Shown here piece by piece: positions 7,121 through 62,675 of a stretch of 64,000 bases of DNA (the stretch's first letter is position 1; each line of letters opens with the position of its first letter). The DNA lies in the NCBI GenBank assembly GCA_034520665.1, contig JAXHNJ010000001.1, positions 66,579 through 130,578 on the forward strand, written 5' to 3'. A program made the translations under genes and the position numbers. The stretch is from Patescibacteria group bacterium (lineage in GTDB: Bacteria > Patescibacteriota > Patescibacteriia > JAXHNJ01). The notes under the pieces are model-generated. The model was given only the letters and a program-made list of their open reading frames with translations. It made no database searches and was not told the DNA's origin.

Positions 7121-7164
7121 GTAATATTATTTAATTAAACTAAATATTAATAATTTTTTAATTT

Positions 7165-7266
7165 ATGCCCAGAAAATATCCCCTAGAAAAAACTCGTAAT
7201 ATTGGTATTATTGCTCACCCTTCGGCGGAGCTCAGGATGACTAAAATCAAGAAAGGAGTTAATTAA
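7165..7266 (+). pseudogene. duplicated fusA 5' end (33-codon pseudo-N-terminus) ending 5 nt before the real fusA start
   Basis: [36 protein letters not shown]. Codons 4-17 repeat the true fusA codons 4-17 (32-nt exact repeat 7174-7205 versus 7280-7311). The 3' end of the ORF carries the GAAAGGAG RBS of fusA. Confidence 0.5.
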
Positions 7267-40068: not shown

Positions 40069-40097
40069 TTGACGAAAGGGCTAAAATTAGTTATAAT
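40069..40097 (+). promoter_or_regulatory. sigma70-like promoter upstream of asnS
   Basis: TTGACG-N17-TATAAT. Confidence 0.5.
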
Positions 40098-40140: not shown

Positions 40141-41427
40141 ATGGCTTATGTTTCCGAAATTAGTCAATTTATAGACAAGAAAGTGCTTTTAAAGGGATGG
40201 ATATTTAATATCCGCTCCTCTGGAAGCATCTTTTTTTTACAGTTTCGGGACGGTACTGGTGTTATTCAGGCTATAGTGGCCAAAAATGATGTTTCTGATA
40301 AAGTTTTTGAAAGCTGCCAAAAATTAACTATTGAAAGCTCAGTAGAAATAAAGGGTAAGGTGGTTAAACAGCCTAAAGCCCCGACAGGATATGAACTGCA
40401 GGTCAGTGATTTAAAAGTAATTCAAGTGGCCCCGCGTTATCCGATTGGCAAAAAGTCCCACGGTACCGAATTTTTGATGAATCACCGGCATCTTTGGCTG
40501 CGTTCCAGTCGTCAGCGGGCTATTTTAAGGCTACGCGACGCGATTATCTGGGCCGCTCGTAAATTTTTTAAAGAAGAAGGTTTTATCCTCACTGATTCTC
40601 CTATTTTAACTCCGACGGCTTGTGAAGGCACCACTACGCTTTTTGAAACTGATTATTTTGACCAACCGGCTTATCTTTCGCAGTCCGGTCAGCTCTATAT
40701 TGAAGCCACAGCCGCTGCTTTGGGTCGGGTTTATGATTTTGGACCAACTTTCCGGGCGGAAAAATCAAAAACTAGAAAACACTTGATGGAATTTTGGATG
40801 TTGGACGCCGAAGCGGCTTTTGTTGAACATAAAGAAAATTTAGAAATTCAGGAAAATATGGTGGCCTATATCGTAAAATATGTTTTGGAAAATAATAAAA
40901 AAGATTTAAAAAACCTAAAGCGTGACACCAAAAAACTGGAAAAAATTAAAGCTCCTTTTATCCGTAAAAAATATGAAGAGATAATCAACGAATTAAATAA
41001 AAAAAGCTTTAAAATTAAATTTGGTGATGACTTTGGGGCCGAAGAAGAAACGGCTATTTCTGAAGATGTTGATAAACCAGTCTTTGTCACTCACTGGCCT
41101 AAAGAAACCAAACCTTTTTATATGAAGCAAGATCCGAAAAATAAAAAGCTGGTTTTAAATTCAGATCTGATTGCTCCTGAAAGCTATGGTGAAATAATCG
41201 GCGGCTCACAAAGAGAGGATGACTATGAGATTTTAAAAGCCAATATGGAAAAAGCCGGTATTCCCATCAAAGACTATCAGTGGTACCTTGATTTGAGAAA
41301 ATATGGCACTTTTCCACATTCCGGTTTTGGCATTGGTATTGAAAGGACTGTGGCTTGGATCTGCGGACTAGATCATATTCGCGAAACTATTCCCTTCCCA
41401 AGAATGCTTAATCGATTAAGACCATAA
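40141..41427 (+). CDS. asnS: asparaginyl-tRNA synthetase (class IIb; archaeal-type AspRS not excluded)
   Basis: 428 aa, GPTFRAEKSKTRKHLMEFWMLDAE motif 2 and C-terminal GFGIGIERTV motif 3. Confidence 0.75.
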   Translation: MAYVSEISQFIDKKVLLKGWIFNIRSSGSIFFLQFRDGTGVIQAIVAKNDVSDKVFESCQKLTIESSVEIKGKVVKQPKAPTGYELQVSDLKVIQVAPRYPIGKKSHGTEFLMNHRHLWLRSSRQRAILRLRDAIIWAARKFFKEEGFILTDSPILTPTACEGTTTLFETDYFDQPAYLSQSGQLYIEATAAALGRVYDFGPTFRAEKSKTRKHLMEFWMLDAEAAFVEHKENLEIQENMVAYIVKYVLENNKKDLKNLKRDTKKLEKIKAPFIRKKYEEIINELNKKSFKIKFGDDFGAEEETAISEDVDKPVFVTHWPKETKPFYMKQDPKNKKLVLNSDLIAPESYGEIIGGSQREDDYEILKANMEKAGIPIKDYQWYLDLRKYGTFPHSGFGIGIERTVAWICGLDHIRETIPFPRMLNRLRP

Positions 41428-41431
41428 ATAT

Positions 41432-41533
41432 ATGGAACAAGAACAAGGTTCAAACAAATTAATAATTCTTATGCTTGTTTTGGCGGTTTTGGTTATTAGT
41501 TATGCTGTGTTTTACTATGTTTGGTTAGTTTAA
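41432..41533 (+). CDS. hypothetical 33-aa single-TM peptide
   Basis: MEQEQGSNKLIILMLVLAVLVISYAVFYYVWLV. No clear RBS. Overlaps the asnS stop region. Confidence 0.25.
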   Translation: MEQEQGSNKLIILMLVLAVLVISYAVFYYVWLV

Positions 41534-41545
41534 TTGTAAAAATAA

Positions 41546-41610
41546 TCAACTATTCAACCAGTTAACTTAATCAACTAATTAACTTATTCCATGAACAAAA
41601 AAGGCTTAAC
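41546..41610 (+). repeat. leader module copy A (AT-rich TAACTAATTAACTTATTCC plus ATGAACAAAAAAGGCTTAAC) at serpin start
   Basis: Near-identical to 42980-43040 and 43915-43950. Confidence 0.6.
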
Positions 41611-42892
41611 TCAAATATTATCTCTTGGTTTAATTTTAGCTCTTATTATTATTGGCTTTTCTTCAGCTTATGTTTATTTGAAACCAAAAAAAGAAACAAA
41701 TAGTAATACTACTAGCAGTAAAATAAATTTGAATTCCTCTCAAGCAAATATAAATACAAATTCAAGTTCTATGATACCAGTTGATAGCCTAAGTCAGGCC
41801 CACACTATTTTTGGTTTAAATATTTTAGATAAATTATATCAATCAGCAAAAAAGGATAATATCTTTATTTCTCCGACTAGTATTGCTTTAGCTCTTTCCA
41901 TGGTTTATCAGGGTAGCGACAGTCAGACCAAAGCCGAAATAGCCGAGACTTTGGCCATTTCCGATATTTCTATGGAGGATTTAAATAAACAAACTAAAAA
42001 TTTGATTACTCAATATAAAGATATTGATCCGGATGTTGAAGTGGCTATAGCTAATTCCATTTGGACTAGGTCTGGTTTTAAACCAAAACAGGATTTTATA
42101 AATACTTTACAAACTTGGTATGAAGCTACTGCTAAAGCTTTGGATTTTAACCAAAAAGAATCTGTTGACGAAATAAATAACTGGGTTAAAGAAAATACTA
42201 AAGATAAAATTGAGAGTATAGTAAACGACCCCATTTCTTCTGACGTGATTATGTATCTGATTAACGCCACTTATTTTAAAGGTATCTGGACCAAGGAGTT
42301 TAAACCTGAAAACACCCAAGAACGCCCTTTTTATAACGGTGATAACACTGAAGAACAACATGATTTCATGTACCAGCGTGAAGATTATGCCTATTTAGAG
42401 AACAATGATTTCCAAGCGGTAAAGTTACCTTACGGTGAAAATGAACGGCTTAGTATGTATGTCTTTTTACCAAAGGATGATCTTGAGTCATTTATGGCAG
42501 AATTAAATTCTGAAAATTGGCATGATTGGCTAAAAGATTTTTCCACTAAAGAAGGATATTTGTATCTGCCAAAAATAAAGCTTGAATATGAAAAAAGTCT
42601 TAATTCATATTTAAAAGACTTGGGTATGAAGCAGGCTTTTACTGCTAGCGCTGATTTTAATAAAATAGCGGCGGATGTATATATTAGTGATGTTTTGCAT
42701 AAGACTTTTGTTGAGGTTAATGAAGAGGGCACTGAAGCAGCGGCTGTTACTAGTGTTAAAATCATTACAACCGCTGAAGAACCCCAGGAATCTTTTAATA
42801 TGTTAGTTAATAAACCCTACTTCTTTGCCATTAGAGATAATGAAATAGGTGAGAATCTTTTTATGGGTATTATTAATAATCCGGAATATTAA
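41591..42892 (+). CDS. serpin (serine protease inhibitor family), membrane-anchored/secreted, with Asn/Ser-rich linker
   Basis: 433 aa. NATYFKGIWTKEF. Hinge and reactive-centre loop EEGTEAAAVTSVKII. C-terminal NKPYFFAIRDNEIGENLFMGIINNP. Confidence 0.85.
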   Translation: MNKKGLTQILSLGLILALIIIGFSSAYVYLKPKKETNSNTTSSKINLNSSQANINTNSSSMIPVDSLSQAHTIFGLNILDKLYQSAKKDNIFISPTSIALALSMVYQGSDSQTKAEIAETLAISDISMEDLNKQTKNLITQYKDIDPDVEVAIANSIWTRSGFKPKQDFINTLQTWYEATAKALDFNQKESVDEINNWVKENTKDKIESIVNDPISSDVIMYLINATYFKGIWTKEFKPENTQERPFYNGDNTEEQHDFMYQREDYAYLENNDFQAVKLPYGENERLSMYVFLPKDDLESFMAELNSENWHDWLKDFSTKEGYLYLPKIKLEYEKSLNSYLKDLGMKQAFTASADFNKIAADVYISDVLHKTFVEVNEEGTEAAAVTSVKIITTAEEPQESFNMLVNKPYFFAIRDNEIGENLFMGIINNPEY

Positions 42893-42979
42893 GGTAGGGT
42901 TATTTGAGACTTGAGAGTCATAATTTAATAGTTAACTTATCAAGTAATCACTAATCATCAATTAACTAAGTAACAAATC

Positions 42980-43040
42980 AACCAATCAACTAAGTAACTA
43001 ATTAACTTATTTCATGAACCAAAAAGGCTTAACAACAATA
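42980..43040 (+). repeat. leader module copy B
   Basis: TAACTAATTAACTTATTTCATGAACCAAAAAGGCTTAAC. Encodes the MNQKGLT N-terminus of the next ORF. Confidence 0.6.
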
Positions 43041-43859
43041 TTAATCCTCGGACTGATCGTCGCTGTTTTAATCGCCGGACTTAGCTTTGGCTATGTCAAG
43101 TATATAAAGAATGGAAATGATAATACCAATATAGTTAGTAATAAAAACACTAATTTGAATACTAATGTGGCTATAAATTCAAACGAGAATGAAAACATAA
43201 ATTCAGTTACCGATAAAAATGAGAATCTTAACACTAATAAAGCTGTAAATCTTAATGAAAATGAGAATACTAATCTTAATGCTAACACAGCCGTAAATCT
43301 AAACAAGAATGAAAATACCAATACCGTGGTGGTTGTGAATAAAAATTTGAATACAAATTCTTCAGCAGAAGATAACGATAACTGGGTTAGTTATGTAAAT
43401 GAAAAATTAAATATTCAATTAGAATATCCGAAAGAAATAAGTAATATTATTAGAGATAACCAAACAAATAAATATAGTGATCAAATTGTTACCACCATTC
43501 AAACTAGTGATTATCAAACAAATGAAACGCCCCTTAACTTAGAGATAATTAAAGGTATTCAATTTAATATTACCCAAGGAACGCCGAGTTGGAACTCAGC
43601 AGTGGGTGGGGTTAATTTTGAGGGCTTAAAAAATTGGTTAGATTTAGGAAGAGGAGGCACGGCACCATCAGTTGAAGAAGAAATTACAGTCTGTGATGAG
43701 AACGCTATTTATCATCTTGGTAATTATAGTTCTGGAGGTAAATTTGAACATGCATATTTTCTACACCATAGTAAATTATACAACCTAAGTGTTTCTTTAG
43801 CTGATAACAAAGTCTTAATATTAAAAAACATTTTATCTACTCTTGAATTTACTAAGTAG
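43014..43859 (+). CDS. hypothetical secreted/anchored protein with NENxNTN tandem repeats
   Basis: 281 aa. N-terminus homologous to the serpin signal anchor (MNQKGLTTILILGLIVAVLIAGL). Long Asn-rich repeat tract, then a globular C-terminus. Confidence 0.6.
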   Translation: MNQKGLTTILILGLIVAVLIAGLSFGYVKYIKNGNDNTNIVSNKNTNLNTNVAINSNENENINSVTDKNENLNTNKAVNLNENENTNLNANTAVNLNKNENTNTVVVVNKNLNTNSSAEDNDNWVSYVNEKLNIQLEYPKEISNIIRDNQTNKYSDQIVTTIQTSDYQTNETPLNLEIIKGIQFNITQGTPSWNSAVGGVNFEGLKNWLDLGRGGTAPSVEEEITVCDENAIYHLGNYSSGGKFEHAYFLHHSKLYNLSVSLADNKVLILKNILSTLEFTK

Positions 43860-43914
43860 GATTATTCGAAACTCGTGATTCGCAATCCGGATTAATAAAC
43901 TAAACAACTTAATT

Positions 43915-43967
43915 AACTAATTAACTTATTCCATGAACAAAAAAGGCTTTAAATCAATTAACTGATT
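43915..43967 (+). repeat. leader module copy C, truncated (MNKKGFKSIN* remnant)
   Basis: AACTAATTAACTTATTCCATGAACAAAAAAGGCTTT followed by a stop after 10 codons, just upstream of aspS. Confidence 0.55.
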
Positions 43968-43993
43968 AATTAATCAACCAATTAACTAACATC

Positions 43994-45385
43994 ATGCAAC
44001 GAATTTTTACGAACGAAACATTAGACCAAATTGATAAAAAAGTTAAACTAGCTGGCTTTGTCAATAATGTCCGCAAAATGGGCTCGATTGTTTTTATTGA
44101 CTTGCGCGACAAAGAGGGGATTATCCAGGTCGTTTTAGACAAAGGCTTTAAAGAAGCTAAAGATTTAAAACCGGAATATGTGATTGAATTAGAGGGTAAA
44201 GTAGCTAAAAGAAGCGAAAAAAATATTAATCCGGAAATACCGACCGGTGAGGTGGAAATTCAGGCTACCAGCTTAAAAATCTTATCAGAAAGCAAAACTC
44301 CGCCTTTTGAGATTGAAAATGAAGAGCGGCAGGCTAACGAAGAATTAAGGCTAAAATACCGTTATTTGGATCTGCGTCATGAGCGTATGAAAAATAATAT
44401 TATTTTACGGGATAAAGTGATTTGGTTTATTCGCCAGTGGCTGCATAATAAAAATTTTTATGAAATTGAAACCCCTCTTTTAACCAAAGGGACCCCTGAA
44501 GGAGCTCGAGAATACATTGTGCCTTCCAGGAATTTTCCGGGCCAGTTTTATGTTTTACCGCAATCACCGCAGCAGTTTAAACAACTTTTAATGATCAGCG
44601 GTTTTGAAAGGTATTTTCAAGTAGCCCGGTGTTTTCGCGATGAAGACGCTCGAGGCGACCGCCAGGCTGAGTTCACCCAGCTGGATTTGGAGATGGCTTT
44701 TACTAGCGACAAAAAGATAATGGAGCTGACGGAAAACTTAATGACTGAATTGGTCAAGAGTGTTTGCCCGAAAAAGAAAATCGCTAAAAAGCCTTTCCCC
44801 ATACTTACTTATGAAGAAGCTATGAAAAAACACCAAAGTGATAAGCCTGATTTGCGGGAGAATAAAAAAGACAAAGATAACTTGGCTTTTTGCTGGGTAG
44901 TCAATCCGCCGCTTTTTGAGCGCGCAGAAAAAGAAAAAAAATTAGTTTCCACTCATCACCCTTTTACGGCACCGGTAGAAAAAGATTTAAAAAATTTAGA
45001 TAAAAATCCGGAAAAAGTAAAGGCCCTCTCTTACGACCTGGTTTTAAACGGCTATGAAATCGGTACCGGCAGTATCAGAATTCACCAAAAAGATTTGCAG
45101 CAAAAAATATTTGAAATTTTAGGGCTTAGTCAAAAAGAAATAAAAAAACGCTTTGGCCATATTTTGGAAGCCTTTGAATATGGGGTGCCACCTCATGGAG
45201 GTATGGCTCCGGGTCTAGACCGCCTGGTCATGCTTTTGGCGGGTGAGCCGAATATCCGCGAAGTAATGGCTTTCCCCAAAACTTCAGATGCCCGTGATCT
45301 GATGATGGGAGCTCCTTCTAAATTGCCGGAGTCGGAAGTTAAAGAAAAGCATATTTCTATTGATAAAAAACATGAGAATATCTAA
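43994..45385 (+). CDS. aspS: aspartyl-tRNA synthetase, bacterial type lacking the GAD insertion domain
   Basis: 463 aa. ARCFRDEDARGDRQAEFTQLD motif 2. GGMAPGLDRLVMLL motif 3. Confidence 0.85.
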   Translation: MQRIFTNETLDQIDKKVKLAGFVNNVRKMGSIVFIDLRDKEGIIQVVLDKGFKEAKDLKPEYVIELEGKVAKRSEKNINPEIPTGEVEIQATSLKILSESKTPPFEIENEERQANEELRLKYRYLDLRHERMKNNIILRDKVIWFIRQWLHNKNFYEIETPLLTKGTPEGAREYIVPSRNFPGQFYVLPQSPQQFKQLLMISGFERYFQVARCFRDEDARGDRQAEFTQLDLEMAFTSDKKIMELTENLMTELVKSVCPKKKIAKKPFPILTYEEAMKKHQSDKPDLRENKKDKDNLAFCWVVNPPLFERAEKEKKLVSTHHPFTAPVEKDLKNLDKNPEKVKALSYDLVLNGYEIGTGSIRIHQKDLQQKIFEILGLSQKEIKKRFGHILEAFEYGVPPHGGMAPGLDRLVMLLAGEPNIREVMAFPKTSDARDLMMGAPSKLPESEVKEKHISIDKKHENI

Positions 45386-45692
45386 TCTGCAAAAATATAT
45401 TTTAGTTAATTCCTATTTTTCAAAGTCGCAAAAAACAAACCGCTCTATATTTGAAGATTTTTATAAAAACAAAAGAAAAAAACCAAAAAAAAGAGATATT
45501 CAGAATATTATTACTAAATCAATAGAGAGACTTATACAAAAAGAGCTTTTAGTCGGTTATGGCCGGCGGACTCCACATATGTGGTTTATTGAAAAAGTGC
45601 GTTTAACATCTAAAGGGCGAAAACAGGTCAAGAAGCTTTTGGGTCAACAACAAAAATTACCTTTTAAAATTAAAAAAATGAGAAATGGATAA
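45360..45692 (+). CDS. hypothetical basic protein (possible nucleic-acid binding)
   Basis: 110 aa, K/R-rich. Overlaps the aspS 3' end. Start uncertain. Confidence 0.35.
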   Translation: MIKNMRISNLQKYILVNSYFSKSQKTNRSIFEDFYKNKRKKPKKRDIQNIITKSIERLIQKELLVGYGRRTPHMWFIEKVRLTSKGRKQVKKLLGQQQKLPFKIKKMRNG

Positions 45693-46239
45693 TTATATAC
45701 AACCAGTTAAAAAAGAAAATAAGAATGACGAGGGTAATGAAGAAGAAAAAGAAGAGGAAGAAGAAAAAAAGCTGAAAAATCAATATTCTGCTTGGGGAAT
45801 TTTCTTTGGCATTCTTTTATTTATAGTTTTTGTAATTATATGGGAGTTGGGACTTCACGACTTGCCGCGTTTTTTTAACCCTTATTATGAAGTTTGTCAG
45901 AATTCTGGCTATCAGGTTGTACAAAAGTTTTGTGATATAAAGCAATATGAAATTATTCGTCTGCTTTTACATTTTTGTCTGTTGGTACCGCTTTTGATGG
46001 TTATTATTGTGGTTAATCATACTAATCAGGGTAAAAAAATGAAAAGTTATAACAGAATTTTACTGCTAGCTTACTTTTTTTCTATTTTATTTCTTTTAAC
46101 TCATGTTTTTGTGGAATTTGCCTATTATCTTTTCCGTTATTATCGTGAAATTGGTAATTATGTGGTTTTGAGTGTTATTGCTATTGCTTTTGTGTTTTTA
46201 ATAGTTTACTTACAAAAAAGATTTAATAAATCTAAATAA
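45685..46239 (+). CDS. hypothetical membrane protein with acidic N-terminus
   Basis: 184 aa. EEEKEEEEEKK then 4 TM helices. Confidence 0.45.
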   Translation: MDNYIQPVKKENKNDEGNEEEKEEEEEKKLKNQYSAWGIFFGILLFIVFVIIWELGLHDLPRFFNPYYEVCQNSGYQVVQKFCDIKQYEIIRLLLHFCLLVPLLMVIIVVNHTNQGKKMKSYNRILLLAYFFSILFLLTHVFVEFAYYLFRYYREIGNYVVLSVIAIAFVFLIVYLQKRFNKSK

Positions 46240-46261
46240 AAAAATTAATATAAATAAAATT

Positions 46262-46846
46262 ATGTCAATTCCAGTTAAAGTTAAAAACTATTTAAAAAAA
46301 ACCGGACTTAATTATAAACTTTTAGAACACAAAAAAGTTTTTACGGCTTATGATTTAGCCCAGACTACCCGCAATGAGCTAAAAAATATTGCTAAAACTT
46401 TATTTATAAAAGCCGATTCTGATTATTATCTGGTAGTTTTAGGAGCCAATCGTCGTCTAGATAAAACTAAATTAAAAAAAGTCTTAAAAGCCAAGAAAGT
46501 AAAAATGGCTTCGGAAAAACAGATGGCTAAGAAATTAAAAATTAAACCTGGCGCTATTACTCCATTTGGCGGTCTTTATGATATTACTCTTATTTTAGAC
46601 CGTCCCTTAAGCCAAATAAAAAAGGCTCTTTTTGGGGCTGGCAGTTTTACAGAGAGTCTGCTTATTAAAATGAAAGATTTTATAAAAAAAGAGGAGCCGG
46701 TTATCGGTACTATTGGCCAGTCAGCTAAATTAAAAGTTCAATACAAAAAGAAGCCAAAGAAAAAGAAGAAAAGAAAAAAGAAGAAGAAGAGATCTAAGAA
46801 AAAAAAGAAGACTTCAAAAAAGACGAAGAGAAAGAAGAAAAAATAA
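46262..46846 (+). CDS. ybaK: YbaK/ProX-type aminoacyl-tRNA deacylase domain protein with poly-lysine C-terminal tail
   Basis: Core PGAITPFGG...GAGS. The last 45 residues are nearly all K/R. Confidence 0.55.
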   Translation: MSIPVKVKNYLKKTGLNYKLLEHKKVFTAYDLAQTTRNELKNIAKTLFIKADSDYYLVVLGANRRLDKTKLKKVLKAKKVKMASEKQMAKKLKIKPGAITPFGGLYDITLILDRPLSQIKKALFGAGSFTESLLIKMKDFIKKEEPVIGTIGQSAKLKVQYKKKPKKKKKRKKKKKRSKKKKKTSKKTKRKKKK

Positions 46847-46894
46847 ATTAATTAAACTTTTCTCTTTTTCTAAAAAAAGTTATTATTTTTAATT

Positions 46895-47602
46895 ATGTAT
46901 AAAATAAAAATAGAAAAATTTGAAGGGCCTTTAGATTTATTACTGAAATTAATTCAGAAAGAAAAAATGGATATCACCCAGATTTCTCTATCTAAAGTAA
47001 CTGAACAATATATCCATTATATTGAAAATTCTGAAGATATTTCTCCGGAAGAGCTGGCGGATTTTTTAGTTATTGCGGCTAAACTTTTACTAATTAAATC
47101 AAAATCACTCTTACCTTACTTAGAAAGAGAAGAGGAAGAAACGGGTTTTGAATTGGAACGTCAGCTGAAAATGTATAAAATTTTTCTTGAAGCAGCTGAA
47201 AATCTCAAGGATATTATTAAAAAGAAGAATTTCAGTTATTTCCGTCAATCCAACAAACTCTTTGAAAAAGTTTTTATTCCGCCTGAAAACATTAATAAAA
47301 ATATACTTAAAGATTGTTTTAAAGGTATTATTCATAGCATTACCCCCATTGTCACTTATAAACAAAGAACAATTAAAAAAACAATTTCCTTAAAAGATAA
47401 AATTGATGATATAAAAAAAATAGTTTTAGAGAAAGAGTTTAGCAATTTTAAAGAAATTCTAGGATCAGCTAAGAATAAAATGGAAATAATAGTTTGTTTT
47501 CTGGCCTTGTTGGAACTGGTTAAAAGACGAAATATTATTTTAGATCAGAATAATATTTTTTCTGATATTTCTATAAAAAAAATTAATAATGAAAACGCAT
47601 GA
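46895..47602 (+). CDS. scpA: segregation and condensation protein A
   Basis: FEGPLDLLLKLIQKEKMDITQISLSKVTEQY. Confidence 0.85.
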   Translation: MYKIKIEKFEGPLDLLLKLIQKEKMDITQISLSKVTEQYIHYIENSEDISPEELADFLVIAAKLLLIKSKSLLPYLEREEEETGFELERQLKMYKIFLEAAENLKDIIKKKNFSYFRQSNKLFEKVFIPPENINKNILKDCFKGIIHSITPIVTYKQRTIKKTISLKDKIDDIKKIVLEKEFSNFKEILGSAKNKMEIIVCFLALLELVKRRNIILDQNNIFSDISIKKINNENA

Positions 47603-48186
47603 ATTTAAAATCAAAAATAGAAAGCTTACTTTTTGTCAGTATCAGTCCGCTTTCGGTTAGCAAAATTGCTAAACTAGTTTCTTCAGATAAAGATAAAGTG
47701 AAGCAGTCCTTGCAAGATCTTAAAGAGAGGCTAAAGGAGGAGCAGAGAGGTATCCAGCTTATGAAGATACAAAACAGTTGGCAGCTTTCAACTAATCCGG
47801 ATAATTCTTCAATTGTTAGAGAATATTTAAAAGACGAGCAAACTGGAGAATTAACCCGGCCGGCTCTGGAAACATTAACCATAATTGCCTATCGTGGGCC
47901 TATAGCTAAATCGGAATTAGATGTTATTCGTGGAGTTAACTGCTCTTTAATTTTAAGAAATTTAATGATTAAGGGATTGGTTGAGTCTTATAAAGATAAG
48001 AGCAAGATGGATACTTTTTATAAAGTTACTTTTGAATTTTTAAAATTTTTAGGACTCTCTGAAACTAGTCATCTCCCTGATTATGAAAAACTGAATAAAG
48101 ATGAAAGTTTAGAAAAATTACTCAATCCTGAAAGTCAAAAAGAGTCTGAAAATGAAGAAAAGGAGAAAAAAAATGAAGAAGAATAA
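47599..48186 (+). CDS. scpB: segregation and condensation protein B
   Basis: TLTIIAYRGPIAKSELDVIRGV. Confidence 0.85.
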   Translation: MNLKSKIESLLFVSISPLSVSKIAKLVSSDKDKVKQSLQDLKERLKEEQRGIQLMKIQNSWQLSTNPDNSSIVREYLKDEQTGELTRPALETLTIIAYRGPIAKSELDVIRGVNCSLILRNLMIKGLVESYKDKSKMDTFYKVTFEFLKFLGLSETSHLPDYEKLNKDESLEKLLNPESQKESENEEKEKKNEEE

Positions 48187-48213
48187 TTATTTACATGAGG
48201 AGATAAATTTGCT

Positions 48214-48711
48214 ATGTTTAGTATAGAATGGGCTAGTTTATTTAGTTCTTTACCAGGAGAAATAAGTACGTTATTAGTAGCCATGATACCCATAGCTGAG
48301 CTAAGAGTAGCTTTACCGATGGCTCTGGGCCCTTATAAATTACCTTTATTTGAAGCTTTTATTTGGTCTTTTATCGGTAACATGATTCCTGTATTTTTTA
48401 TTTTATGGTTTTTAGAGCCGGTTTCGCGTTTTTTAATGAAAAAATCTCGCTTCTTTAACAAATTTTTTAACTGGCTTTTTGACAGAACCCGCCGGAAATT
48501 TACTAAAAATACCGAACGTTATGGTGTAGTCATTGCTTTAATATTATTTGTAGCTATTCCTTTACCTGTTACTGGGGCCTGGACTGGTTCAGTTGCTGCT
48601 TTTCTTTTTGCTGTTTCTTATAAAAAAGCCATTCTTTCCATTGCTTTAGGGGTTTTAATTGCCAGCTTTGTTGTTGGCTCCTTATATTTTGGCGCTATTA
48701 GTTTATTTTAA
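48214..48711 (+). CDS. putative small multidrug export protein family (COG2426-like) membrane protein
   Basis: 165 aa, 4 TM. IPIAELRVALPMALG motif. Confidence 0.5.
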   Translation: MFSIEWASLFSSLPGEISTLLVAMIPIAELRVALPMALGPYKLPLFEAFIWSFIGNMIPVFFILWFLEPVSRFLMKKSRFFNKFFNWLFDRTRRKFTKNTERYGVVIALILFVAIPLPVTGAWTGSVAAFLFAVSYKKAILSIALGVLIASFVVGSLYFGAISLF

Positions 48712-48716
48712 TATTT

Positions 48717-49499
48717 ATGGCTAAAAATAAAAAATCGAAAAAAGAATTAATTATCATAGCTAATTGGAAGATGAACTTATTTTATCAGGATACTGAAGAT
48801 TTGATTATTAATCTAAGAGAAATTTTAAAAAATTATAGGGGTAAAATGGAAGTAGTTATTTGTCCCTCTTTGACCTATTTGGACCGGGCTCATGAAATAT
48901 TAATTGCTTCAAAAATTAAGCTTGGAGCCCAAAATGTTTTTTGGGAGAAAGACGGTAATTATACTGGGGAAGTTTCGCCAAAGATGTTGAAAGAACTCGG
49001 TTGCCAGTATGTAATTATCGGTCATTCAGAGAGGAGAAAATATTTGGGAGAAACTGATGAAATGGTTGATCGTAAAACTGTTAATACTTTGCGTAATCAT
49101 TTAACCCCAATAGTTTGTGTGGGTGAAACTAAAGATGAAAGAAGGCAGCAGGTTCACCAGATGGTAGTAACTGATCAGGTAAAAAAAGCCTTGCGCTATC
49201 TTAATCCTATTTTCAGGAAGGAAAGAATTATAATTGCTTATGAACCGGTCTGGTCAATATATCCGGGACAGCCTTGTTCTCCGGATGAAGCCAAAGAAAT
49301 GGCTTTAGTTATAGAGCAGGCTTTGATAGATCTCTATCCGAAAAAAGTGGTTGGAAATAATTTTAATATCATTTATGGCGGCAGTATCAATGAAAAAAAT
49401 GTTCTTGATTATATTGACCAAAAACATTTTCAGGGCGGATTAGTCGGCAATGCTTCGTTAGATCATAAAAGTTTTTATAAGATTATTAAAAAATTATAA
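48717..49499 (+). CDS. tpiA: triosephosphate isomerase
   Basis: IIANWKMN, IGHSERR, IAYEPVWSI, GGSI. Confidence 0.93.
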   Translation: MAKNKKSKKELIIIANWKMNLFYQDTEDLIINLREILKNYRGKMEVVICPSLTYLDRAHEILIASKIKLGAQNVFWEKDGNYTGEVSPKMLKELGCQYVIIGHSERRKYLGETDEMVDRKTVNTLRNHLTPIVCVGETKDERRQQVHQMVVTDQVKKALRYLNPIFRKERIIIAYEPVWSIYPGQPCSPDEAKEMALVIEQALIDLYPKKVVGNNFNIIYGGSINEKNVLDYIDQKHFQGGLVGNASLDHKSFYKIIKKL

Positions 49500-49508
49500 A
49501 ATAAACCT

Positions 49509-50393
49509 ATGCTTGTCTCTTTAAAAAAGTTAGTAGAACAGGCTCATCAGCATAAATACGCTGTGGGAGCTTTTAATACTTCAAATTTGGAAGTAACTCA
49601 AGGGATTATCCAGGGTGCTGTGGAAATGCAGGCCCCGGTTATTATCCAAGTCTCAGAAACCGCTATTAAATACGCTGGCTTAAAATCAATCACAGCCATT
49701 GTTGAAACTGTAGCCAAAAATGAAGCGGTTAATATTCCAGTAGCTCTTCATCTTGATCACGGTCGTAGTTTTCGAGCCGTAGCAGAATGTATAGAAGCCG
49801 GTTTTTCCTCAATCATGATTGATGCTTCAAATTTACCTTTTGACGAAAATGTAACTATTACCAAACAGTCAGTTGAGTACGCTCATAAAAAAGGTGTTTG
49901 GGCCCAAGGAGAATTAGGTAAGATTAGCGGTTCAGAAGACTATATAGTAGTTGATAAAAAAGACGCCTATTTTACTGATCCTAAAGAAGCAAAAAAATTT
50001 GCTAAGCAGACAAAAGTTGATACTCTAGCCGTTTCAGTAGGTAACGTTCATGGTATTTATAAATTACGTAAGGGTGTGCCTAAATTAAATCAAAAAAGAT
50101 TAAAAGAAATTCACCAGATAATTCCTGAAATTCCTTTAGTTTTACATGGAGCTTCTGGTTTGCCAGAAGATGCGATTATTGAAGGGGTTAAAAACGGTAT
50201 TAGAATTATTAATATTGATACCGAACTTCGTTTAGCTTTTACTGATAAATTAAGAGAAACCTTAGAAAATGATAAAAAAGAATACGATCCCAGAAAAGTT
50301 TTAAAGCCATCAACTGAGGCAGTCAAAAAAATAGTAAAAAAGAAAATCAAAATTTTTCAATCTGAAGGACAAGCTAAGAATTTTCAAAAATAA
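49509..50393 (+). CDS. fba: fructose-bisphosphate aldolase class II
   Basis: AVGAFNTSNLE, LHLDHG, VSVGNVHG. Confidence 0.9.
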   Translation: MLVSLKKLVEQAHQHKYAVGAFNTSNLEVTQGIIQGAVEMQAPVIIQVSETAIKYAGLKSITAIVETVAKNEAVNIPVALHLDHGRSFRAVAECIEAGFSSIMIDASNLPFDENVTITKQSVEYAHKKGVWAQGELGKISGSEDYIVVDKKDAYFTDPKEAKKFAKQTKVDTLAVSVGNVHGIYKLRKGVPKLNQKRLKEIHQIIPEIPLVLHGASGLPEDAIIEGVKNGIRIINIDTELRLAFTDKLRETLENDKKEYDPRKVLKPSTEAVKKIVKKKIKIFQSEGQAKNFQK

Positions 50394-50414
50394 TTAACTA
50401 TTAATTATAAATAT

Positions 50415-51425
50415 ATGAGTAAAAAAATTGCCATCAATGGATTTGGTCGTATAGGCCGAACCACCTTAAAAATTTTAATTGAAAAAAAAGATGTAGAAAT
50501 TGTAGCGGTTAATGATTTAACTGATGTGAAAACATTAGCTCATCTTTTAAAATATGATTCTTCTTACGGCATTTATAATCATGAGGTAGATTTTAAGGAG
50601 AAAAAACTAATAATTGATGGAAATAAAATAAAAGTAATTTCAGAAAAAGATCCCGAAAATTTACCCTGGGATAAACTGGATATTGACATAGTTTTAGAAT
50701 GCACTGGAATTTTTCGTGATTTTGAAGGAGCTAATAAACATATAAAAGCCGGAGCTAAAAAAGTAATAATTTCAGCCCCGGCTAGGAGTGAAAATATAAA
50801 AACTTTTGTTTTAGGGGTAAATGATGATGATTATGAACCCGATAAGGACAAAATTATATCTAATGCTTCTTGTACCACTAATTGTTTAACTCCTCTAGTG
50901 CATGTTTTAAATAAAGCTTTTGGTATTGATAAGGGATTAATGACTACTGTACATAGCTATACTAGTGATCAAAAACTTCAAGATTTGCCTCATAAGGATT
51001 TAAGGAGAGCTAGGGCTGCGGCTTTAAATATTATTCCTACCTCTACTGGTGCGGCTAAAACTACTACCAAAATAATTACCGAACTTGATAAAAAAATTGA
51101 CGGTCTAGCTTTTCGAGTACCGACACCAGTTGTGTCAGTAGTTGACTTTGTTTGTTTATTAAAGAAGGAAACTACTAAAGAGGAAATTGATAAAGCTTTT
51201 ATAGAGGCCTCTAAAAGCAAAAAATTAAAAGGAATTTTAGGAGTTTCCAATGAAGGTTTAGTTTCTATGGATTATAAGGGCAATCCCTTTTCCTCAATTA
51301 TTGATTTACCTTTAACAAATGTGGTTGGTGGTAATTTAATAAAAATAGTAGCTTGGTATGATAATGAATGGGGCTACGCTACTCGTTTAGCAGAATTATG
51401 TCAGCTAGTTAGTAAAAAAATATAA
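50415..51425 (+). CDS. gap: glyceraldehyde-3-phosphate dehydrogenase
   Basis: INGFGRIGR, ASCTTNCL, WYDNEWGY. Confidence 0.95.
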   Translation: MSKKIAINGFGRIGRTTLKILIEKKDVEIVAVNDLTDVKTLAHLLKYDSSYGIYNHEVDFKEKKLIIDGNKIKVISEKDPENLPWDKLDIDIVLECTGIFRDFEGANKHIKAGAKKVIISAPARSENIKTFVLGVNDDDYEPDKDKIISNASCTTNCLTPLVHVLNKAFGIDKGLMTTVHSYTSDQKLQDLPHKDLRRARAAALNIIPTSTGAAKTTTKIITELDKKIDGLAFRVPTPVVSVVDFVCLLKKETTKEEIDKAFIEASKSKKLKGILGVSNEGLVSMDYKGNPFSSIIDLPLTNVVGGNLIKIVAWYDNEWGYATRLAELCQLVSKKI

Positions 51426-51463
51426 TTAATAATTATTTTTAATAGGGAAGGAGGTGAAAAGTT

Positions 51464-51703
51464 AATGTTTAAACTTAATAACAAAATATTAGTTGAATGT
51501 TTTTGGTGGTTTGGCTTAGTTTGTGCTTTATTTGGTATAGTTACTGAAATTTCAGGGCAACAAGTTTATCTTTCCTCTTATTTTTATTTAGAAGTAGCAG
51601 TAGTTGCTTTTTTAGCCGGTGTTTTTACCAAGATAAAAGATTAATAAACAAGAATAGTATTATTTTTATATTTTCTTCAGATCATAAGAAAGCGGTTTAT
51701 TGA
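51464..51703 (+). CDS. hypothetical small membrane protein
   Basis: 79-codon frame read by hand; it is absent from the supplied ORF track. Strong GGAAGGAGGTG RBS 6 nt upstream. One TM helix. Confidence 0.35.
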
Positions 51704-51744
51704 CTGATTAGAAAAAAAATGTTATTTTCTATGTTATAAAACAG

Positions 51745-51819
51745 GCCGCTTTCGTCTAGCTTGGTTTAGGACGCATCCCTCTCACGGATGAAACACGGGT
51801 TCAAATCCCGTAGGCGGTA
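51745..51819 (+). tRNA. tRNA-Glu (anticodon CTC)
   Basis: Hand-folded. Acceptor GCCGCTT/AGGCGGT (two GU pairs, including 1-72). D-arm GTCT-AGCTTGGTTTA-GGAC. Anticodon stem CATCC/GGATG with loop CTCTCAC. T-arm ACGGG-TTCAAAT-CCCGT. No CCA. Confidence 0.65.
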
Positions 51820-52027
51820 TTTCAAATTTGTTGTGATTTTTTCACCAGTTACTATAAGTTAATTTATATTATATTAAAAAATTGCTTAGGCCATAGATTA
51901 TTGAGGGAGAAACTATATTATATTCAAGTACTTTAAAGCTTTTTTTCTAATTTATAAATGATATATTTTTAATTAAACTTTAAATCTTATTTAAACTATC
52001 TGTTAAAAAAAAGATAGTTTTAATTTT

Positions 52028-53140
52028 ATGAAAATTGCTATAATTACACAAAGCTATTATCCGGTTAAAGGAGGGGTGGCCGAACACGTTCACGCTCTTT
52101 CTGGAGAGTTAGAAAAAAGAGGGCATGAAGTAGTGATAATAACCGGTAATTTTACCGGCTTTGATGATAATTTTGGCCGTAATGTTATTCGTATCGGCCG
52201 TGACCTGACAATTTTAGCTAACGGCGCTTTCTGCAATGTTACGATTAGCCTACAGTTTAAGAAACTTTTGGAAAAAATTGAAAAAAAAGAAAAATTTGAT
52301 GTTGTTCATATCCATCAGCCGATTGACCCAGTATTGCCACTTCTGGCCACTAAATATTTAAAAGCTCCAAAAGTCGGCACTTTCCATACCTATCAGAAGA
52401 AAAACTTTTGGCTGGAAATGTTAAAAGAGCCAGCCGAGCCTTATTTCAAAAGGCTAAAGGCTCTAATTGCTGTTTCCAGTTCAGCCCGGCAGTTTATTTC
52501 GCAGTATTATAAGGCTGATTATCATATTATACCTAACGGTATAGATACCAAACGTTTTTCTCCTGAAGTTAAGCCAATGGAGCAATATAAAAATGACAAA
52601 GATTTTAAAATTCTTTTTTTGGGTCGTATGGATCCAAGAAAGGGTTTTAAATATTTATTAAGAGCTTTTCCTTTAATCTATCAGAAAATTACTAATGTTA
52701 AAATAATAGTAGTTGGTGGCGGTATTATGAAGCATTGGTATAAAATGGCTCTGCCTTCTGAATTATCGCCAAGAGTGGATTATCACGGTTTTGTGCCCAA
52801 TGATCAGGTACCGCGTTTTTATGCTGCCTGTGATTTGTACTGTTCACCAGCTACTAGGGGTGAAAGCTTTGGTATTGTATTATTAGAGGCCATGGCTTCG
52901 GGTAAACCGGTGGTGGCTTCAAATATCCATGGGTATAACTCTATAGTCAAGGACGGTCAGACCGGATTTCTGGTCGAAAAGAAAAACCCTCTAGCTTTAG
53001 CGGAATCTATTATTAAATTGGCAAAAAATAAAGAGATGAGAAATAATATGGAAAAGTTTGCAAGAGAAGAAGCTTTAAAGTATGACTGGAAGAAGGTGAC
53101 CGATCGGATAGAGAGAGTTTATAAAGAAGTTTTAAGCTAA
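52028..53140 (+). CDS. glycosyltransferase family 4 (GT-B, group 1)
   Basis: MKIAIITQSYYPVKGGVAEHV N-terminus. C-terminal GESFGIVLLEAMASGKPVVA. Confidence 0.85.
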   Translation: MKIAIITQSYYPVKGGVAEHVHALSGELEKRGHEVVIITGNFTGFDDNFGRNVIRIGRDLTILANGAFCNVTISLQFKKLLEKIEKKEKFDVVHIHQPIDPVLPLLATKYLKAPKVGTFHTYQKKNFWLEMLKEPAEPYFKRLKALIAVSSSARQFISQYYKADYHIIPNGIDTKRFSPEVKPMEQYKNDKDFKILFLGRMDPRKGFKYLLRAFPLIYQKITNVKIIVVGGGIMKHWYKMALPSELSPRVDYHGFVPNDQVPRFYAACDLYCSPATRGESFGIVLLEAMASGKPVVASNIHGYNSIVKDGQTGFLVEKKNPLALAESIIKLAKNKEMRNNMEKFAREEALKYDWKKVTDRIERVYKEVLS

Positions 53141-53144
53141 AAAA

Positions 53145-55028
53145 ATGCCTAAAAAAAAGCATAAAATAATTAAATTAATTTTATGGAGCTTTATTTCTCT
53201 AGTTCTTTTTTTTAGTATTTTGTATTTTTCCTTTGTCTTAGTTATTACGCCATCCCCCCAGCCGAAATTTATACCAAGCCAAAATAATTTGAAAGTAAAT
53301 AAAGCGGTTGAATTTGATTTTAATATACCCATAGCCAGAGAAGTGAAAGTTGATATTGAGCCAGAAACTTTAGGGGTGGTTAGTTATGAAAATAAATTAA
53401 TTAATAATCATTTATCACGGACAATAGTTTTTACTCCGGAATATAATTGGCAGGCTGAAACAAATTATAAAATTACTCTTTCTAATCTTAGAAATGCTTT
53501 GCCTGGTTTTCGTTCTTCAAAAACATACAGTTTTAATTTTCAGACCGAGAAATTGCCAAGTATTAAAAAAGTTTCTCCTTCACAAAAGGAAAAAATAGAA
53601 CTGCTTAAATATTTTACCATTGAATTTGATAAAAAACCGAAAAATTTAGCTGAATATTATTTTGAGTTTGATCCTCAAATAAGTTTTACTAAGGAAATCA
53701 GCCAGGATGGAAAAATTCACACTCTTAAACCTAATCTTCTGCTTTCACAAGGCACAGAATATAATCTAACAATAAAAAGAAGTAAAATTAGAAAAATCTT
53801 TTGCCAAGAAGAAATAGTAGAATGTTTACAAAAAGAAACTGTTTGGCTGGGATCCTGGACAGTTCAGGAGGCTCCTTATATTAATAATTTTTATCCCAAG
53901 GGTGATAAGGTTGACTTAGACAGCCAGATAAAAATAAATTTTAGTCAGGAAGTTGATTTGAATTCATTCCTAGAAAAAGTGAAAATCTCTCCTGAATTAT
54001 CCGGTCAGTGGACGACCAGTGATAATCTTACTTTTATTTTCGAGCCGGAAAACATGGTTAAGGATATGAAATATGAAGTGCTAATTTTAAAAGATTTAAA
54101 AACAAAAAACGGCGGATATTTTGAGGAGAATTCTCTTCATAGTTTTACTACCAAAGGACCGGTAAAAATGATAAATTCTTTTCCGCAGGCCGGAGATACT
54201 GGTATTTTAGTAAATAGTCCTATAAAAACTACTTTTAGCGGTTCAGTTGATCACTCTTCAGCTCAAAACCATTTTTTAATAGAGCCGGCTATTGAAGGTG
54301 ATTTTTCCTGGGATAACAATACTATGATATTTATACCAAGGCAGAGTTTAGATTTTAATAAAACCTACACCATCTCTTTAAGTCCGGGTATTGTTTCCCA
54401 TGAATTATATGATTCTGAAAGTGAGTTTAATTTTAGTTTTTCTACTGAATTATCAACAACTAAACTTGAGGTGTCTTTTCACCGTCAGGAACATAATCTA
54501 TCCTGTGAAGTAGCCACTTTAGTTATGGCTTTAAATTATAAAGGGGTTAATGTAGGCGAAGCAGAATTAATTAATTTAATTGGTTTTGATCCGACTCCAA
54601 AACAAAACGGAATTTGGGGTAATCCGCACATTGCTTTTGTTGGTGATATTGATGGACTTCAGCCATCTACTGGTTATGGAGTTTATTGGCAGCCGATTGC
54701 CGCCGCCGGACAGAATTACCGCCCCACCCGCTGGTTCACCGATGGCCGCTTGGAAACTATTACTAGTGAAATAAAAAAAGGCAACCCAGTGATTATCTGG
54801 GGCACCGCTGGTACCGGCCGGAGAATAGACTGGAAAACTACTTCCGGTGGTAATGTAGTGGCAGTTACTGGCGAACATACTATGGTGGTCACCGGATTTA
54901 TCGGCTCAGCTTCCAACCCCACCCGCATTATCGTACTCGATCCGCTTTACGGCGAAAAAACCTTTAGCCAGTCTTCTTTTTTATGGAACTGGGGCCTTTT
55001 AAATCGTAGCGGGGTAGTGGTTGAGTAG
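53145..55028 (+). CDS. membrane-anchored surface protein with tandem Ig-like domains and C-terminal C39-like (YvpB-type) cysteine peptidase domain
   Basis: 627 aa. N-terminal TM. C-terminal SCEVATLVMALNYKG...GNPVIIWG...HTMVVTGF (Cys/His arrangement of Peptidase_C39_2). Confidence 0.6.
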   Translation: MPKKKHKIIKLILWSFISLVLFFSILYFSFVLVITPSPQPKFIPSQNNLKVNKAVEFDFNIPIAREVKVDIEPETLGVVSYENKLINNHLSRTIVFTPEYNWQAETNYKITLSNLRNALPGFRSSKTYSFNFQTEKLPSIKKVSPSQKEKIELLKYFTIEFDKKPKNLAEYYFEFDPQISFTKEISQDGKIHTLKPNLLLSQGTEYNLTIKRSKIRKIFCQEEIVECLQKETVWLGSWTVQEAPYINNFYPKGDKVDLDSQIKINFSQEVDLNSFLEKVKISPELSGQWTTSDNLTFIFEPENMVKDMKYEVLILKDLKTKNGGYFEENSLHSFTTKGPVKMINSFPQAGDTGILVNSPIKTTFSGSVDHSSAQNHFLIEPAIEGDFSWDNNTMIFIPRQSLDFNKTYTISLSPGIVSHELYDSESEFNFSFSTELSTTKLEVSFHRQEHNLSCEVATLVMALNYKGVNVGEAELINLIGFDPTPKQNGIWGNPHIAFVGDIDGLQPSTGYGVYWQPIAAAGQNYRPTRWFTDGRLETITSEIKKGNPVIIWGTAGTGRRIDWKTTSGGNVVAVTGEHTMVVTGFIGSASNPTRIIVLDPLYGEKTFSQSSFLWNWGLLNRSGVVVE

Positions 55029-55029
55029 G

Positions 55030-55200
55030 AGGGAGTTAGTTAATTAGTTAGGTAGTTAATTGGTTGATTAGTTTTAGCTAGTGGCAAATCCTTTCGTATC
55101 TTTACCAGACTTGTCTTTGTGGAATTTAAATAGTTAATTGGTTGATTAGTTGATTAGTGATTAACTAATTAATTATATAGACCCATAGTTGATTGCTTAA
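55030..55200. repeat. AT-rich TAACTAAT/CAACCAAT-type oligomer repeat tract, both orientations
   Basis: AGTTAATTAGTTAGGTAGTTAATTGGTTGATTAGTT and TAGTGATTAACTAATTAATT share motifs with the leader modules at 41546, 42930, 43900 and 62625. Confidence 0.5.
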
Positions 55201-55269
55201 ATAAAAGGAATCTGTTGACAAAAATGGCAAAATTTATTATTATTTACTATCAATAAAGTATTTATTTGT

Positions 55270-62554: not shown

Positions 62555-62675
62555 AAAACCCTAAGCGCAGAGGAAGATAAAGAGCTAGAAACAAATTATC
62601 ATATAAATAAAAATTTGTCAATACCATTATTAACTTAATCACTCAATCACTTAATTAACTCAATTACTTAACTCC

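Follow-up and report, generated by a model that had tools for sequence, protein, structure and literature searches.

A repeated 5′ module in a putative array of exported-protein genes between asnS and aspS of a Patescibacteria genome

In a 64,000-nucleotide stretch of the genome of a Patescibacteria group bacterium (GenBank assembly GCA_034520665.1, contig JAXHNJ010000001.1, positions 66,579 to 130,578 of the forward strand; hereafter the window), a short module recurs three times between asnS and aspS, the genes of asparaginyl- and aspartyl-tRNA synthetase. Two copies form the start of a gene, one encoding a serpin and the other a protein of 281 residues (gene B), and the third stands as a stub in front of aspS. 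The explanation we favour, with a probability of about two in three, is that genes for exported or membrane-anchored proteins form a tandem family lodged between asnS and aspS in one clade of Patescibacteria, and that the module is the 5′ end which they have in common, joined to a separate leader of repeated octamers. Such an array would change through duplication, deletion and recombination, the breakpoints falling close to the 5′ ends of genes, and dead 5′ stubs would be left behind, two of which are preserved here: the third copy of the module, and an open reading frame (ORF) of 33 codons directly after asnS. The octamer tract, which lies immediately before the ATG and probably within the 5′ untranslated region (UTR), would serve as a putative leader for translation independent of Shine-Dalgarno (SD) pairing, and also as an insulator.

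A preliminary description of this DNA had claimed a module in three copies, and we recovered all three, each 57 nt long, at 41551-41607, 42974-43030 and 43893-43949 (copies A, B and C). A repeat search grouped them into one direct-repeat family, D3, with copy B at 72% and copy C at 88%. The 25-nt core TAACTAATTAACTTATTYCATGAAC occurs three times in the 64 kb with at most 3 mismatches, compared with 0.00 expected from 100 shuffles, and the 17-nt coding start ATGAACMAAAAAGGCTT occurs three times compared with 0.23 expected. The longest exact match spans 35 nt between copies A and C (41573-41607 and 43915-43949), 16 nt between A and B, and 17 nt between B and C. Copies A and C differ at 7 positions; the 35-nt core is free of differences, and all 7 are found in the 22 nt preceding it (Fisher p = 6e-4). 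This pattern could reflect either a duplication boundary at about 41573 or constraint on the core. Cores A and C bracket a unit of 2.34 kb that holds the serpin gene and gene B. Outside this genome, a search of the GTDB representative genomes, among which the source metagenome-assembled genome (MAG) is not included, returned a single match to the core pattern, in a Calditrichales genome, presumably by chance.

The module is composed of two layers, an AT-rich octamer repeat and a coding start with a hydrophobic anchor. The coding starts read MNKKGLT..., MNQKGLT... and MNKKGFKSIN followed by a stop codon, in agreement with the translations given previously. Homology between copies A and B continues for about 60 nt into the coding sequence (repeat D4, 82 nt, 76%). 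The proposed homology of the N-termini of the serpin and of protein B was borne out by a manual count, in which 18 of the first 30 residues were identical; a comparison of the two proteins gave 24% identity over 176 residues (E = 1.3e-9). In the family as a whole, the N-terminus begins with ATGAAYMAAAAAGG (MNQKG or MNKKG, also written ATGAAYCAAAAAGG), followed by a hydrophobic segment of about 20 residues, and the starts of the array genes can also be expressed as the pattern ATGAAYMARAARGG. The features of a Sec-type signal peptide or an N-terminal signal-anchor are present: a basic n-region and, behind it, a hydrophobic stretch whose mean Kyte-Doolittle (KD) hydropathy over 19 residues is 2.30 in the serpin and 2.64 in protein B. 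No cysteine that could form a lipobox was found in the first 40 residues of the serpin, protein B or the 33-residue stub, and no NCBIfam lipoprotein signature was detected in them. A type IV pilin-like signal peptide was also considered and rejected: MNKKG/LTQIL and MNQKG/LTTIL carry no Glu at +5, and neither Pfam N_methyl nor an NCBIfam model matched at E <= 0.01.

Behind the anchor, the array genes follow a three-part plan in which the conserved start and anchor lead into a low-complexity linker rich in Asn and Thr, and then into a variable cargo domain. The cargo of the first gene is a complete serpin domain (PF00079, E = 1.9e-111, residues 71-431, profile positions 3-370 of 370), and the protein is 66% identical over its full length to a serpin encoded in the same interval of the relative L226. 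Gene B itself has no Pfam or NCBIfam match. Its linker is encoded by a 48-nt repeat (43224-43322), and its ortholog p236 in the relative L225 (55% over 238 residues) lies directly upstream of aspS. Of the six homologous C-terminal domains, four match PsbP_2 weakly (best E 2e-4). The homologs of gene B share the first 40 residues or so (MNQKGLxQILxLGxIAAxLIAGxSFGYVKYxKNxNEN) and the Asn/Thr-rich linker, while their C-terminal domains differ, and the same pattern was seen in the proteins P0002 to P0006. An all-against-all BLASTP comparison extended this to the whole family: nearly all proteins of the interval are alike over the first 40-100 residues, and C-terminal similarity is limited to true orthologs, namely the serpins (66%), protein B and L225 p236 (55%), and L007 g283 and L226 g250 (55%). 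Since the anchor subtype LIAGxSFGYVKY is joined to at least four mutually non-aligning C-terminal domains, and PsbP-like cargo is found behind several anchor subtypes, cargo has been exchanged behind a shared anchor over evolutionary time.

Conservation of the coding start does not require any recent exchange between the two genes of the window. Identity at positions +1 to +32 is high family-wide and across genomes (66-88%), and past +33 the genes of the window resemble their own orthologs (70-80%) and reach only 48% with each other. Gene conversion of the 5′ coding end between A and B was therefore dropped as a candidate, the identity at +1 to +32 being equal across genomes (B and L224 g414, 84%; A and B, 81%). 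A recent event is needed for the A/C identity only. In all sequence that we examined, genes starting with MNQKG were confined to the asnS-aspS array. Three such genes stand in tandem in L008 (1-2694), all with PsbP-like cargo, and three in L007 (1-2208), where the cargo is mixed; the family therefore expands by simple duplication as well as through replacement of the cargo.

The preliminary description had placed the module in an insertion between asnS and aspS and had suggested comparing this interval across relatives. About 8 proteins in all reach 75% identity to the aspartyl-tRNA synthetase (AspRS) of the window, and the next best are at 66% or less. The window (100%) contains the 33-residue stub, the serpin gene, gene B and stub C, that is two genes and two stubs. 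The closest relative, L224 (89%), has at least two genes (p290 and g414), the last of them 21 nt from aspS. L225 (79%) has at least one gene, the ortholog of gene B, ending 17 nt before aspS, and L004 (78%) has at least two, the last being an MNQKG gene. Five genes (g205, g250, g248, g366 and a serpin gene) were found in L226 (76%), and four in L005 (75%). Contigs span the whole interval only in L226 and L005, and the counts for the other three relatives are lower bounds. The array genes are co-oriented in every locus examined, and those of L226 are spaced by 4-22 nt, as in an operon. The order of the flanks is common to the window, L226 and L005: P-type ATPase, DUF2238, asnS, array, aspS, ScpA, ScpB, TIM, FBA, GAPDH. 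In two distant Patescibacteria, L230 and L231 (63% AspRS identity), asnS and aspS are separated by only 9 and 22 nt and are followed by the same downstream genes. Because asnS and aspS adjoin each other in these distant genomes, with genes standing between them in relatives of at least 75% AspRS identity, the array is a clade-specific insertion of variable content.

Two gene remnants were found in the window. The 33-codon ORF starts 4 nt after asnS, the same gap as that before g205 of L226, an intact gene of 205 codons. Its DNA aligns with the first 100 nt or so of g205 and diverges where tract A begins, indicating that it is a truncated first array gene; what it retains is the anchor only, with a hydrophobic core of mean KD 2.85. 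The second remnant is the stub of copy C, which had been described as ten codons ending in TGA upstream of aspS, and is exactly that (ATG at 43933, TGA ending at 43965). It ends 28 nt before the ATG of aspS at 43994. Its own ATG is the only start codon inside any tract leader. We found no counterpart upstream of aspS in L224, L225, L004, L226 or L005. The tract adjoining aspS is orthologous in the window and L004, and compared with the aspS leader of L004 the window has about 53 extra nucleotides, which carry core C and are equal to core A. Stub C is a dead gene relic. A third stub is found in L005, where about 48 nt of the 5′ end of aspS are copied just upstream of g423 (9941-9991, about 92% identical; MDRIFTSQTLDKVDKK, then a stop), and the intact aspS lies downstream of g423 (11284 onward). 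Here, independently of the window, duplication of a gene's 5′ end has again left copies on either side of an array gene. What the window and L005 share is thus a duplicated 5′ gene end that flanks array genes on both sides, with one of the two copies dead. The pattern fits tandem duplication with a breakpoint at the 5′ end, or integration by a single crossover at short homology, in either case followed by decay. Coordinates of all features are collected in Table 1.

Table 1. Features of the asnS-aspS interval and other octamer tracts of the window (positions within the window).
Feature	Position	Strand	Remarks
asnS promoter TTGACG-17-TATAAT	40069..40097	+	11/12; conserved in L226 (4007-4035) and L005 (5748-5776)
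asnS (asparaginyl-tRNA synthetase), left border of array	40141..41427	+	Pfam tRNA-synt_2 5e-75 and OB anticodon domain; syntenic in L226 and L005
33-aa ORF, truncated 5′ remnant of first array gene	41432..41533	+	ortholog of L226 g205 (205 aa, PsbP_2-like, intact)
Octamer leader tract A	41540..41588	+	Tandem Repeats Finder (TRF) 41543-41584; relaxed scan 41540-41588
Module core A	41573..41607	+	-18 to +17 around serpin ATG; identical over 35 nt to core C
Serpin gene	41591..42892	+	Pfam Serpin; MNKKG signal-anchor, N/S/T-rich linker
Weak promoter-like site TTGAGA-17-AATAGT	42904..42932	+	9/12, within shuffle expectation; uncertain; just upstream of tract B
Octamer leader tract B, about 11 units	42921..43011	+	TRF 11.6 copies; relaxed scan 42956-43011
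Module core B	42995..43030	+	around ATG of 281-aa gene; 2 mismatches to core A
Gene B, 281 aa	43014..43859	+	MNQKG anchor, NxN-T-N linker; C-terminal domain probably PsbP-like
Octamer leader tract C	43893..43930	+	TRF 4.6 copies; relaxed scan 43907-43930
Module core C	43915..43949	+	35-nt exact direct repeat of core A
Stub C ORF (MNKKGFKSIN, TGA)	43933..43965	+	relic 5′ gene end; incidental upstream ORF in aspS leader
Fourth octamer tract, directly before aspS	43952..43991	+	relaxed scan; orthologous to aspS-proximal tract of L004
aspS (aspartyl-tRNA synthetase), right border of array	43994..45385	+	Pfam tRNA-synt_2 3.7e-118; synteny
Two reverse octamer tracts (55034-55073 and 55128-55159)	55034..55159	-	intergenic; complementary to leaders A, B and C/aspS
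Variant octamer tract, ACTCAATC/ACTTAATT units	62633..62675	+	abuts ATG (62676) of 113-aa gene with weak zinc-ribbon match

The AT-rich layer of the module is a tandem repeat with a period of 8 and a consensus near AACYAATY, that is (AACYAATY)n. A relaxed scan of the window returned 6 octamer regions, with 0.32 expected from shuffles, and 4 of the 6 lie at the asnS-aspS locus. The module is thus distinct from ordinary AT-rich spacer, which the preliminary description had named as the interpretation that would undo its claim. The octamer tract contains 0% G and no ATG, GTG or TTG, and stop codons occur in each of the three frames no further than about 30 nt from the start. Leader A has 4% G, stops in all 3 frames and a minimum free energy of -2.1 kcal/mol (z +0.8), the 28 nt of the aspS leader downstream of the stub (43966-43993) have 0% G, and the variant tract near the end of the window has 0% G and stops in three frames. 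Folding of the three window leaders was no better than that of shuffled sequences (z +0.2 to +0.9), and the z-score was positive in 5 of the 6 leaders tested. The variant tract precedes a gene outside the asnS-aspS interval, and therefore the tract is not restricted to the exported-protein array in this genome. An SD-like motif was detected before only about 15 of the 68 genes of the window, which contains no rRNA.

From these properties we infer a role of the tract as an SD-independent leader and three-frame insulator. Being free of G, it offers neither an SD sequence, nor an alternative ATG, GTG or TTG, nor secondary structure. Its period of 8 nt puts TAA in all three frames, so that a ribosome running on from the gene upstream would terminate, leaving the first AUG after the tract as the only place to initiate.

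Two copies of the octamer tract elsewhere in the window are in reverse orientation. They lie in an intergenic region (55029-55180), between the stop codon of a Big_5/Peptidase_C39_2 gene (53145-55028) and a TTGACA-17-TATTAT promoter of the gene at 55270. By computation, plus-strand RNA of this region could form duplexes of about 35-45 bp with leaders A, B and C/aspS, reaching -35 to -44 kcal/mol (z -5 to -8); three leaders used as controls gave z between about 0 and -2.

We examined whether the module also carries a promoter, as had been suggested. The search for sigma-70-like sites of at least 10/12 returned none in 41300-44000, and the genes of L226 lie only 4-22 nt from each other, in an operon-like arrangement. 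The site upstream of asnS is probably the main promoter for the downstream array, and transcription would proceed mainly from there, perhaps with weak internal promoters. A shared promoter within the module was accordingly abandoned. In L004, a site of 10/12 (TTGAAT-16-TATAAT, 500-527) stands just 5′ of the tract at a position analogous to the weak site preceding tract B. With the TATAAT box just 5′ of it, the tract would therefore be 5′ UTR there. A leaderless mRNA with TAACTT as its -10 box was considered and set aside, as no -35 box accompanies it.

The octamer tract is present in the window, L004 and L007, and absent from L224, L225, L226, L229 and L005. Beyond these loci, the three-unit pattern was found in at least 120 metagenome contigs and in 95 viral contigs, with a GC content from 22 to 63%, and the number of units ranges from 3 to 22. 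Orientation was assessed on the 81 metagenome tracts with enough flank among the matches listed. An ORF of at least 80 codons starts at -8 to +40 of the sense end in 23 of these 81 tracts, and of the antisense end in 3 (23 vs 3, p = 9e-5); 6 of the 81 lie inside long ORFs. In most of the positive cases the tract ends 0-12 nt from the ATG, and the downstream start agreed with the gene call of the repository in all seven cases checked, two of which belong to clusters named Paludibacter or Porphyromonadaceae (Bacteroidota). Among the genes fronted by a tract, which often reaches the ATG itself, are housekeeping genes (sucD-like, ABC ATPase, rlmN, threonine dehydrogenase and KDG kinase). The AT-rich tract is not specific to the module, being absent from four close relatives and present before housekeeping genes in Bacteroidota. 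By manual count, A occupies position -3 in 6 of 10 tract-bearing metagenome examples. One 8-kb contig (L069) carries two tract-fronted genes. Viral contigs, which include giant-virus MAGs, have a weaker orientation bias (15 vs 6).

A serious rival reading is that the octamer tracts are functionless microsatellites arising by slippage, and that the triplication consists only of paralogy of coding starts combined with low-complexity likeness. Patchy occurrence among close relatives (L224, L225, L226 and L005 do without the tract), variation in unit number and recurrence of the same pattern in many unrelated contigs, viral ones included, are all what such a reading would lead one to expect. The strong bias of orientation toward a downstream start codon, among the matches listed, is not, and neither is the short distance at which the tracts mostly end before the ATG. 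Use of one strand and avoidance of G and of start codons in two phyla would likewise be unexpected if the tracts were neutral, and the A/C core is free of mismatches over 35 nt, compared with 7 in the 22-nt flank. We consider this reading unlikely on balance, yet well worth keeping in view.

Several observations weigh against the explanation that we favour. Since four close relatives, including the closest, L224, lack the tract and have array genes with gaps of 4-22 nt, the tract is dispensable, and it could be a neutral, slippage-prone microsatellite. Its likeness between genomes may reflect the repeat unit rather than constraint. Copies A, B and C carry T at -3 (TTATTCC-ATG) in place of the A that is favourable in Bacteroidetes and E. 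coli (PMC6847099); aspS has A there. Promoter use, the extent of the 5′ UTR and co-transcription of the array are all read from sequence motifs and spacing. Stub C may have arisen by duplication followed by deletion, by Campbell-type integration or by template switching between tracts. For this genome, finally, the counts of tracts and of family members cover the 64-kb window, which is part of a 456-kb contig.

It is also possible, though we do not regard it as probable, that the tracts matter chiefly as DNA, providing scattered homology which drives unequal recombination and thereby gene gain and loss. This would be compatible with a shared 5′ end of an anchored-protein family. Four co-oriented tracts lie within 2.5 kb, both stubs of the window end at a tract, and in our own reading of the alignment between the window and L004 the extra 53 nt or so with core C are bounded by AACT repeats of the tract. 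Against such a role, the content of the array also varies in L226, L005 and L224, which have no tract; the L005 stub derives from the coding sequence of aspS, not from a tract; and exact identity between tracts does not exceed 17 nt outside the A/C core.

Stub C could alternatively be a functional upstream ORF or leader peptide that regulates translation of aspS. It is a complete ORF from ATG to TGA close to the aspS start, its initiation context is that of two real genes, and its AUG is the sole one in an otherwise start-free leader. The lack of such an ORF in L224, L225, L004, L226 and L005 makes this improbable. Moreover, the stub contains no Asp codon, and no terminator, antiterminator or fold was detected in the aspS leader. 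Rfam returned only tRNAs at gathering score, and nothing relevant as a T-box, leader or riboswitch at E <= 1 in 41300-44200.

The preliminary description had viewed the locus as a cassette-type arrangement, in which genes are duplicated or exchanged behind a shared promoter and signal-peptide unit. Duplication or exchange behind a shared anchor, and variation of content, agree with our findings; the shared promoter and any dedicated mechanism do not, and "cassette array" holds in a loose sense only. A dedicated site-specific cassette or phase-variation system, with a recombinase acting on the core, would account for the position of the core at the 5′ end of each gene, for the 35-nt direct repeats A and C around a two-gene unit, for the differences in gene content among relatives, and for the branching of an independent assembly graph at the core (see below). 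We nevertheless regard it as very improbable. No recombinase or integrase was found in the 64-kb window or in the flanks of L226 and L005, which consist in all three of conserved housekeeping genes (P-type ATPase, DUF2238, asnS, aspS, YbaK-like, ScpA, ScpB and glycolytic genes). The genes all share one orientation, and the spacers contain no significant inverted repeat that could form an attC-like structure, and no folding. The gaps between the genes of L226 and L224 measure 4-22 nt and contain no repeated non-coding core, and conservation of the coding core is accounted for by the family-wide conservation of MNQKG.

A wrong join across the 35-nt repeat is scarcely credible: although contigs of the Logan assembly of the same sample (SRR26473340) break at cores A and C, as expected for an exact repeat of at least 31 nt, and so do not confirm the order across the repeats, that assembly reproduces the sequence on both sides exactly (41578-43944 and 43920-55385), the order matches the synteny of relatives (a serpin in the interval of L226, and the ortholog of gene B adjoining aspS in L225), and 35 nt is shorter than a sequencing read. 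With respect to variation in repeat number, this second assembly of the sample is identical, and is uninformative on minor variants.

Among known systems, the vsp, vpma, vsa and vlp loci of Mycoplasma consist of clustered genes for variable surface proteins that share a conserved 5′ UTR and signal peptide. The asnS-aspS array resembles them in that surface-protein genes are clustered in tandem in a bacterium with a small genome and dependence on a host, with content that differs between strains, and in that a near-identical 5′ non-coding segment and N-terminal export signal are followed by repetitive linkers and divergent bodies. The array differs from the Mycoplasma loci in having no lipobox cysteine, adjacent recombinase, inversions or single movable promoter; furthermore, variation here is between species-level relatives, and the cargo comprises unrelated folds rather than variants of one protein. 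By analogy, the array would work most like these clustered surface-protein families. Integron cassettes are likewise co-oriented, promoter-poor genes behind one strong promoter, with an intergenic repeat and variable content. The array is not an integron, however: no IntI or attI was found in the 64-kb window, and its repeat is 5′, non-folding and partly coding, whereas attC is structured and lies 3′ of cassettes.

The octamer leader has two partial parallels. The "epsilon" translational enhancer of phage T7 gene 10, UUAACUUUA, is a single 9-mer working in concert with an SD sequence. The segment AAUUAACUUAUU directly before the ATG in the three copies contains UUAACUU, and both elements are A/U-rich and resemble SD-independent enhancers; the unit here differs in being repeated and in having no SD sequence. 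The second parallel is with Bacteroidetes, where SD-independent initiation relies on unstructured leaders of low GC content, with AUG depleted near the start (PMC3155529, PMC6847099), and where A at -3 is favourable, as it is in E. coli (PMC6847099). Like those leaders, the tract is depleted of G, rich in A, non-folding and directly upstream of the start, with no SD sequence and no nearby AUG, and it occurs in an SD-poor genome here and in Bacteroidota contigs. Those leaders are a compositional trend with single-position preferences, while the tract is a discrete element, an octamer repeated in tandem 3 to more than 20 times, with three-frame stops, used before few genes per genome and with T at -3 in A, B and C. 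The tract is a discrete, repeated variant of the Bacteroidetes-type unstructured leader. We found no description of the octamer in open-access literature text, only irrelevant primer matches, and searches for literature on Patescibacteria serpins and on Shine-Dalgarno sequences in Patescibacteria returned nothing useful. A paper on "hypervariation" in the candidate phyla radiation (PMC6851277) concerns a repeat inside a gene and is no precedent.

In evolutionary terms the array is a fresh instance of a familiar pattern, and the octamer leader is the less expected part of the findings. Patescibacteria are mostly uncultured and dependent on other cells, and exported or surface proteins are likely tools of this dependence. 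The locus provides a defined site, within a conserved asnS-aspS pair, at which changeable anchored proteins, one of them a serpin, are built on a single chassis of anchor and linker. With its stubs as a record of recent gain and loss, it is where strain-level differences in host interaction might be sought. Both phyla in which the octamer leader adjoins start codons make little use of Shine-Dalgarno pairing. If the leader promotes or insulates translation, it would offer a test case for SD-free choice of start codons and an expression part for Bacteroidota; if the tract is neutral, the finding reduces to an ordinary array of paralogs. In a bolder form, which we put forward tentatively and would not ourselves call probable, the octamer tract might represent an undescribed type of natural translation leader, shared by SD-poor bacteria of different phyla (Patescibacteria and Bacteroidota). 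Such a leader would be free of G, non-folding and non-initiating, with a three-frame stop before the true AUG; slippage in its length could tune expression, the reverse copies at 55034-55159 might supply a complementary "anti-leader" RNA that controls tract-bearing genes jointly, and in this lineage the leader would have been recruited to a fast-changing array of exported proteins for host interaction.

Two further sequences were noticed in the spacers of these loci. In L005, the 219-nt spacer after asnS contains a TAAATYC-like tract with a period of about 7-8 nt, followed by an inverted copy (7113-7260), which may be an analogous low-complexity element of different sequence. A motif that contains G and resembles GATTCGYGAT was found after the stop codon of the preceding gene, ahead of the octamer tract, in the window (43860-43892, CTCGTGATTCGCAATCC) and twice in L007 (60-100 and 1790-1820, GTGATTCGTGATTCGTGATT and GAGATTCGCGATCTGGATC); it resembles an inverted, G-containing octamer unit.

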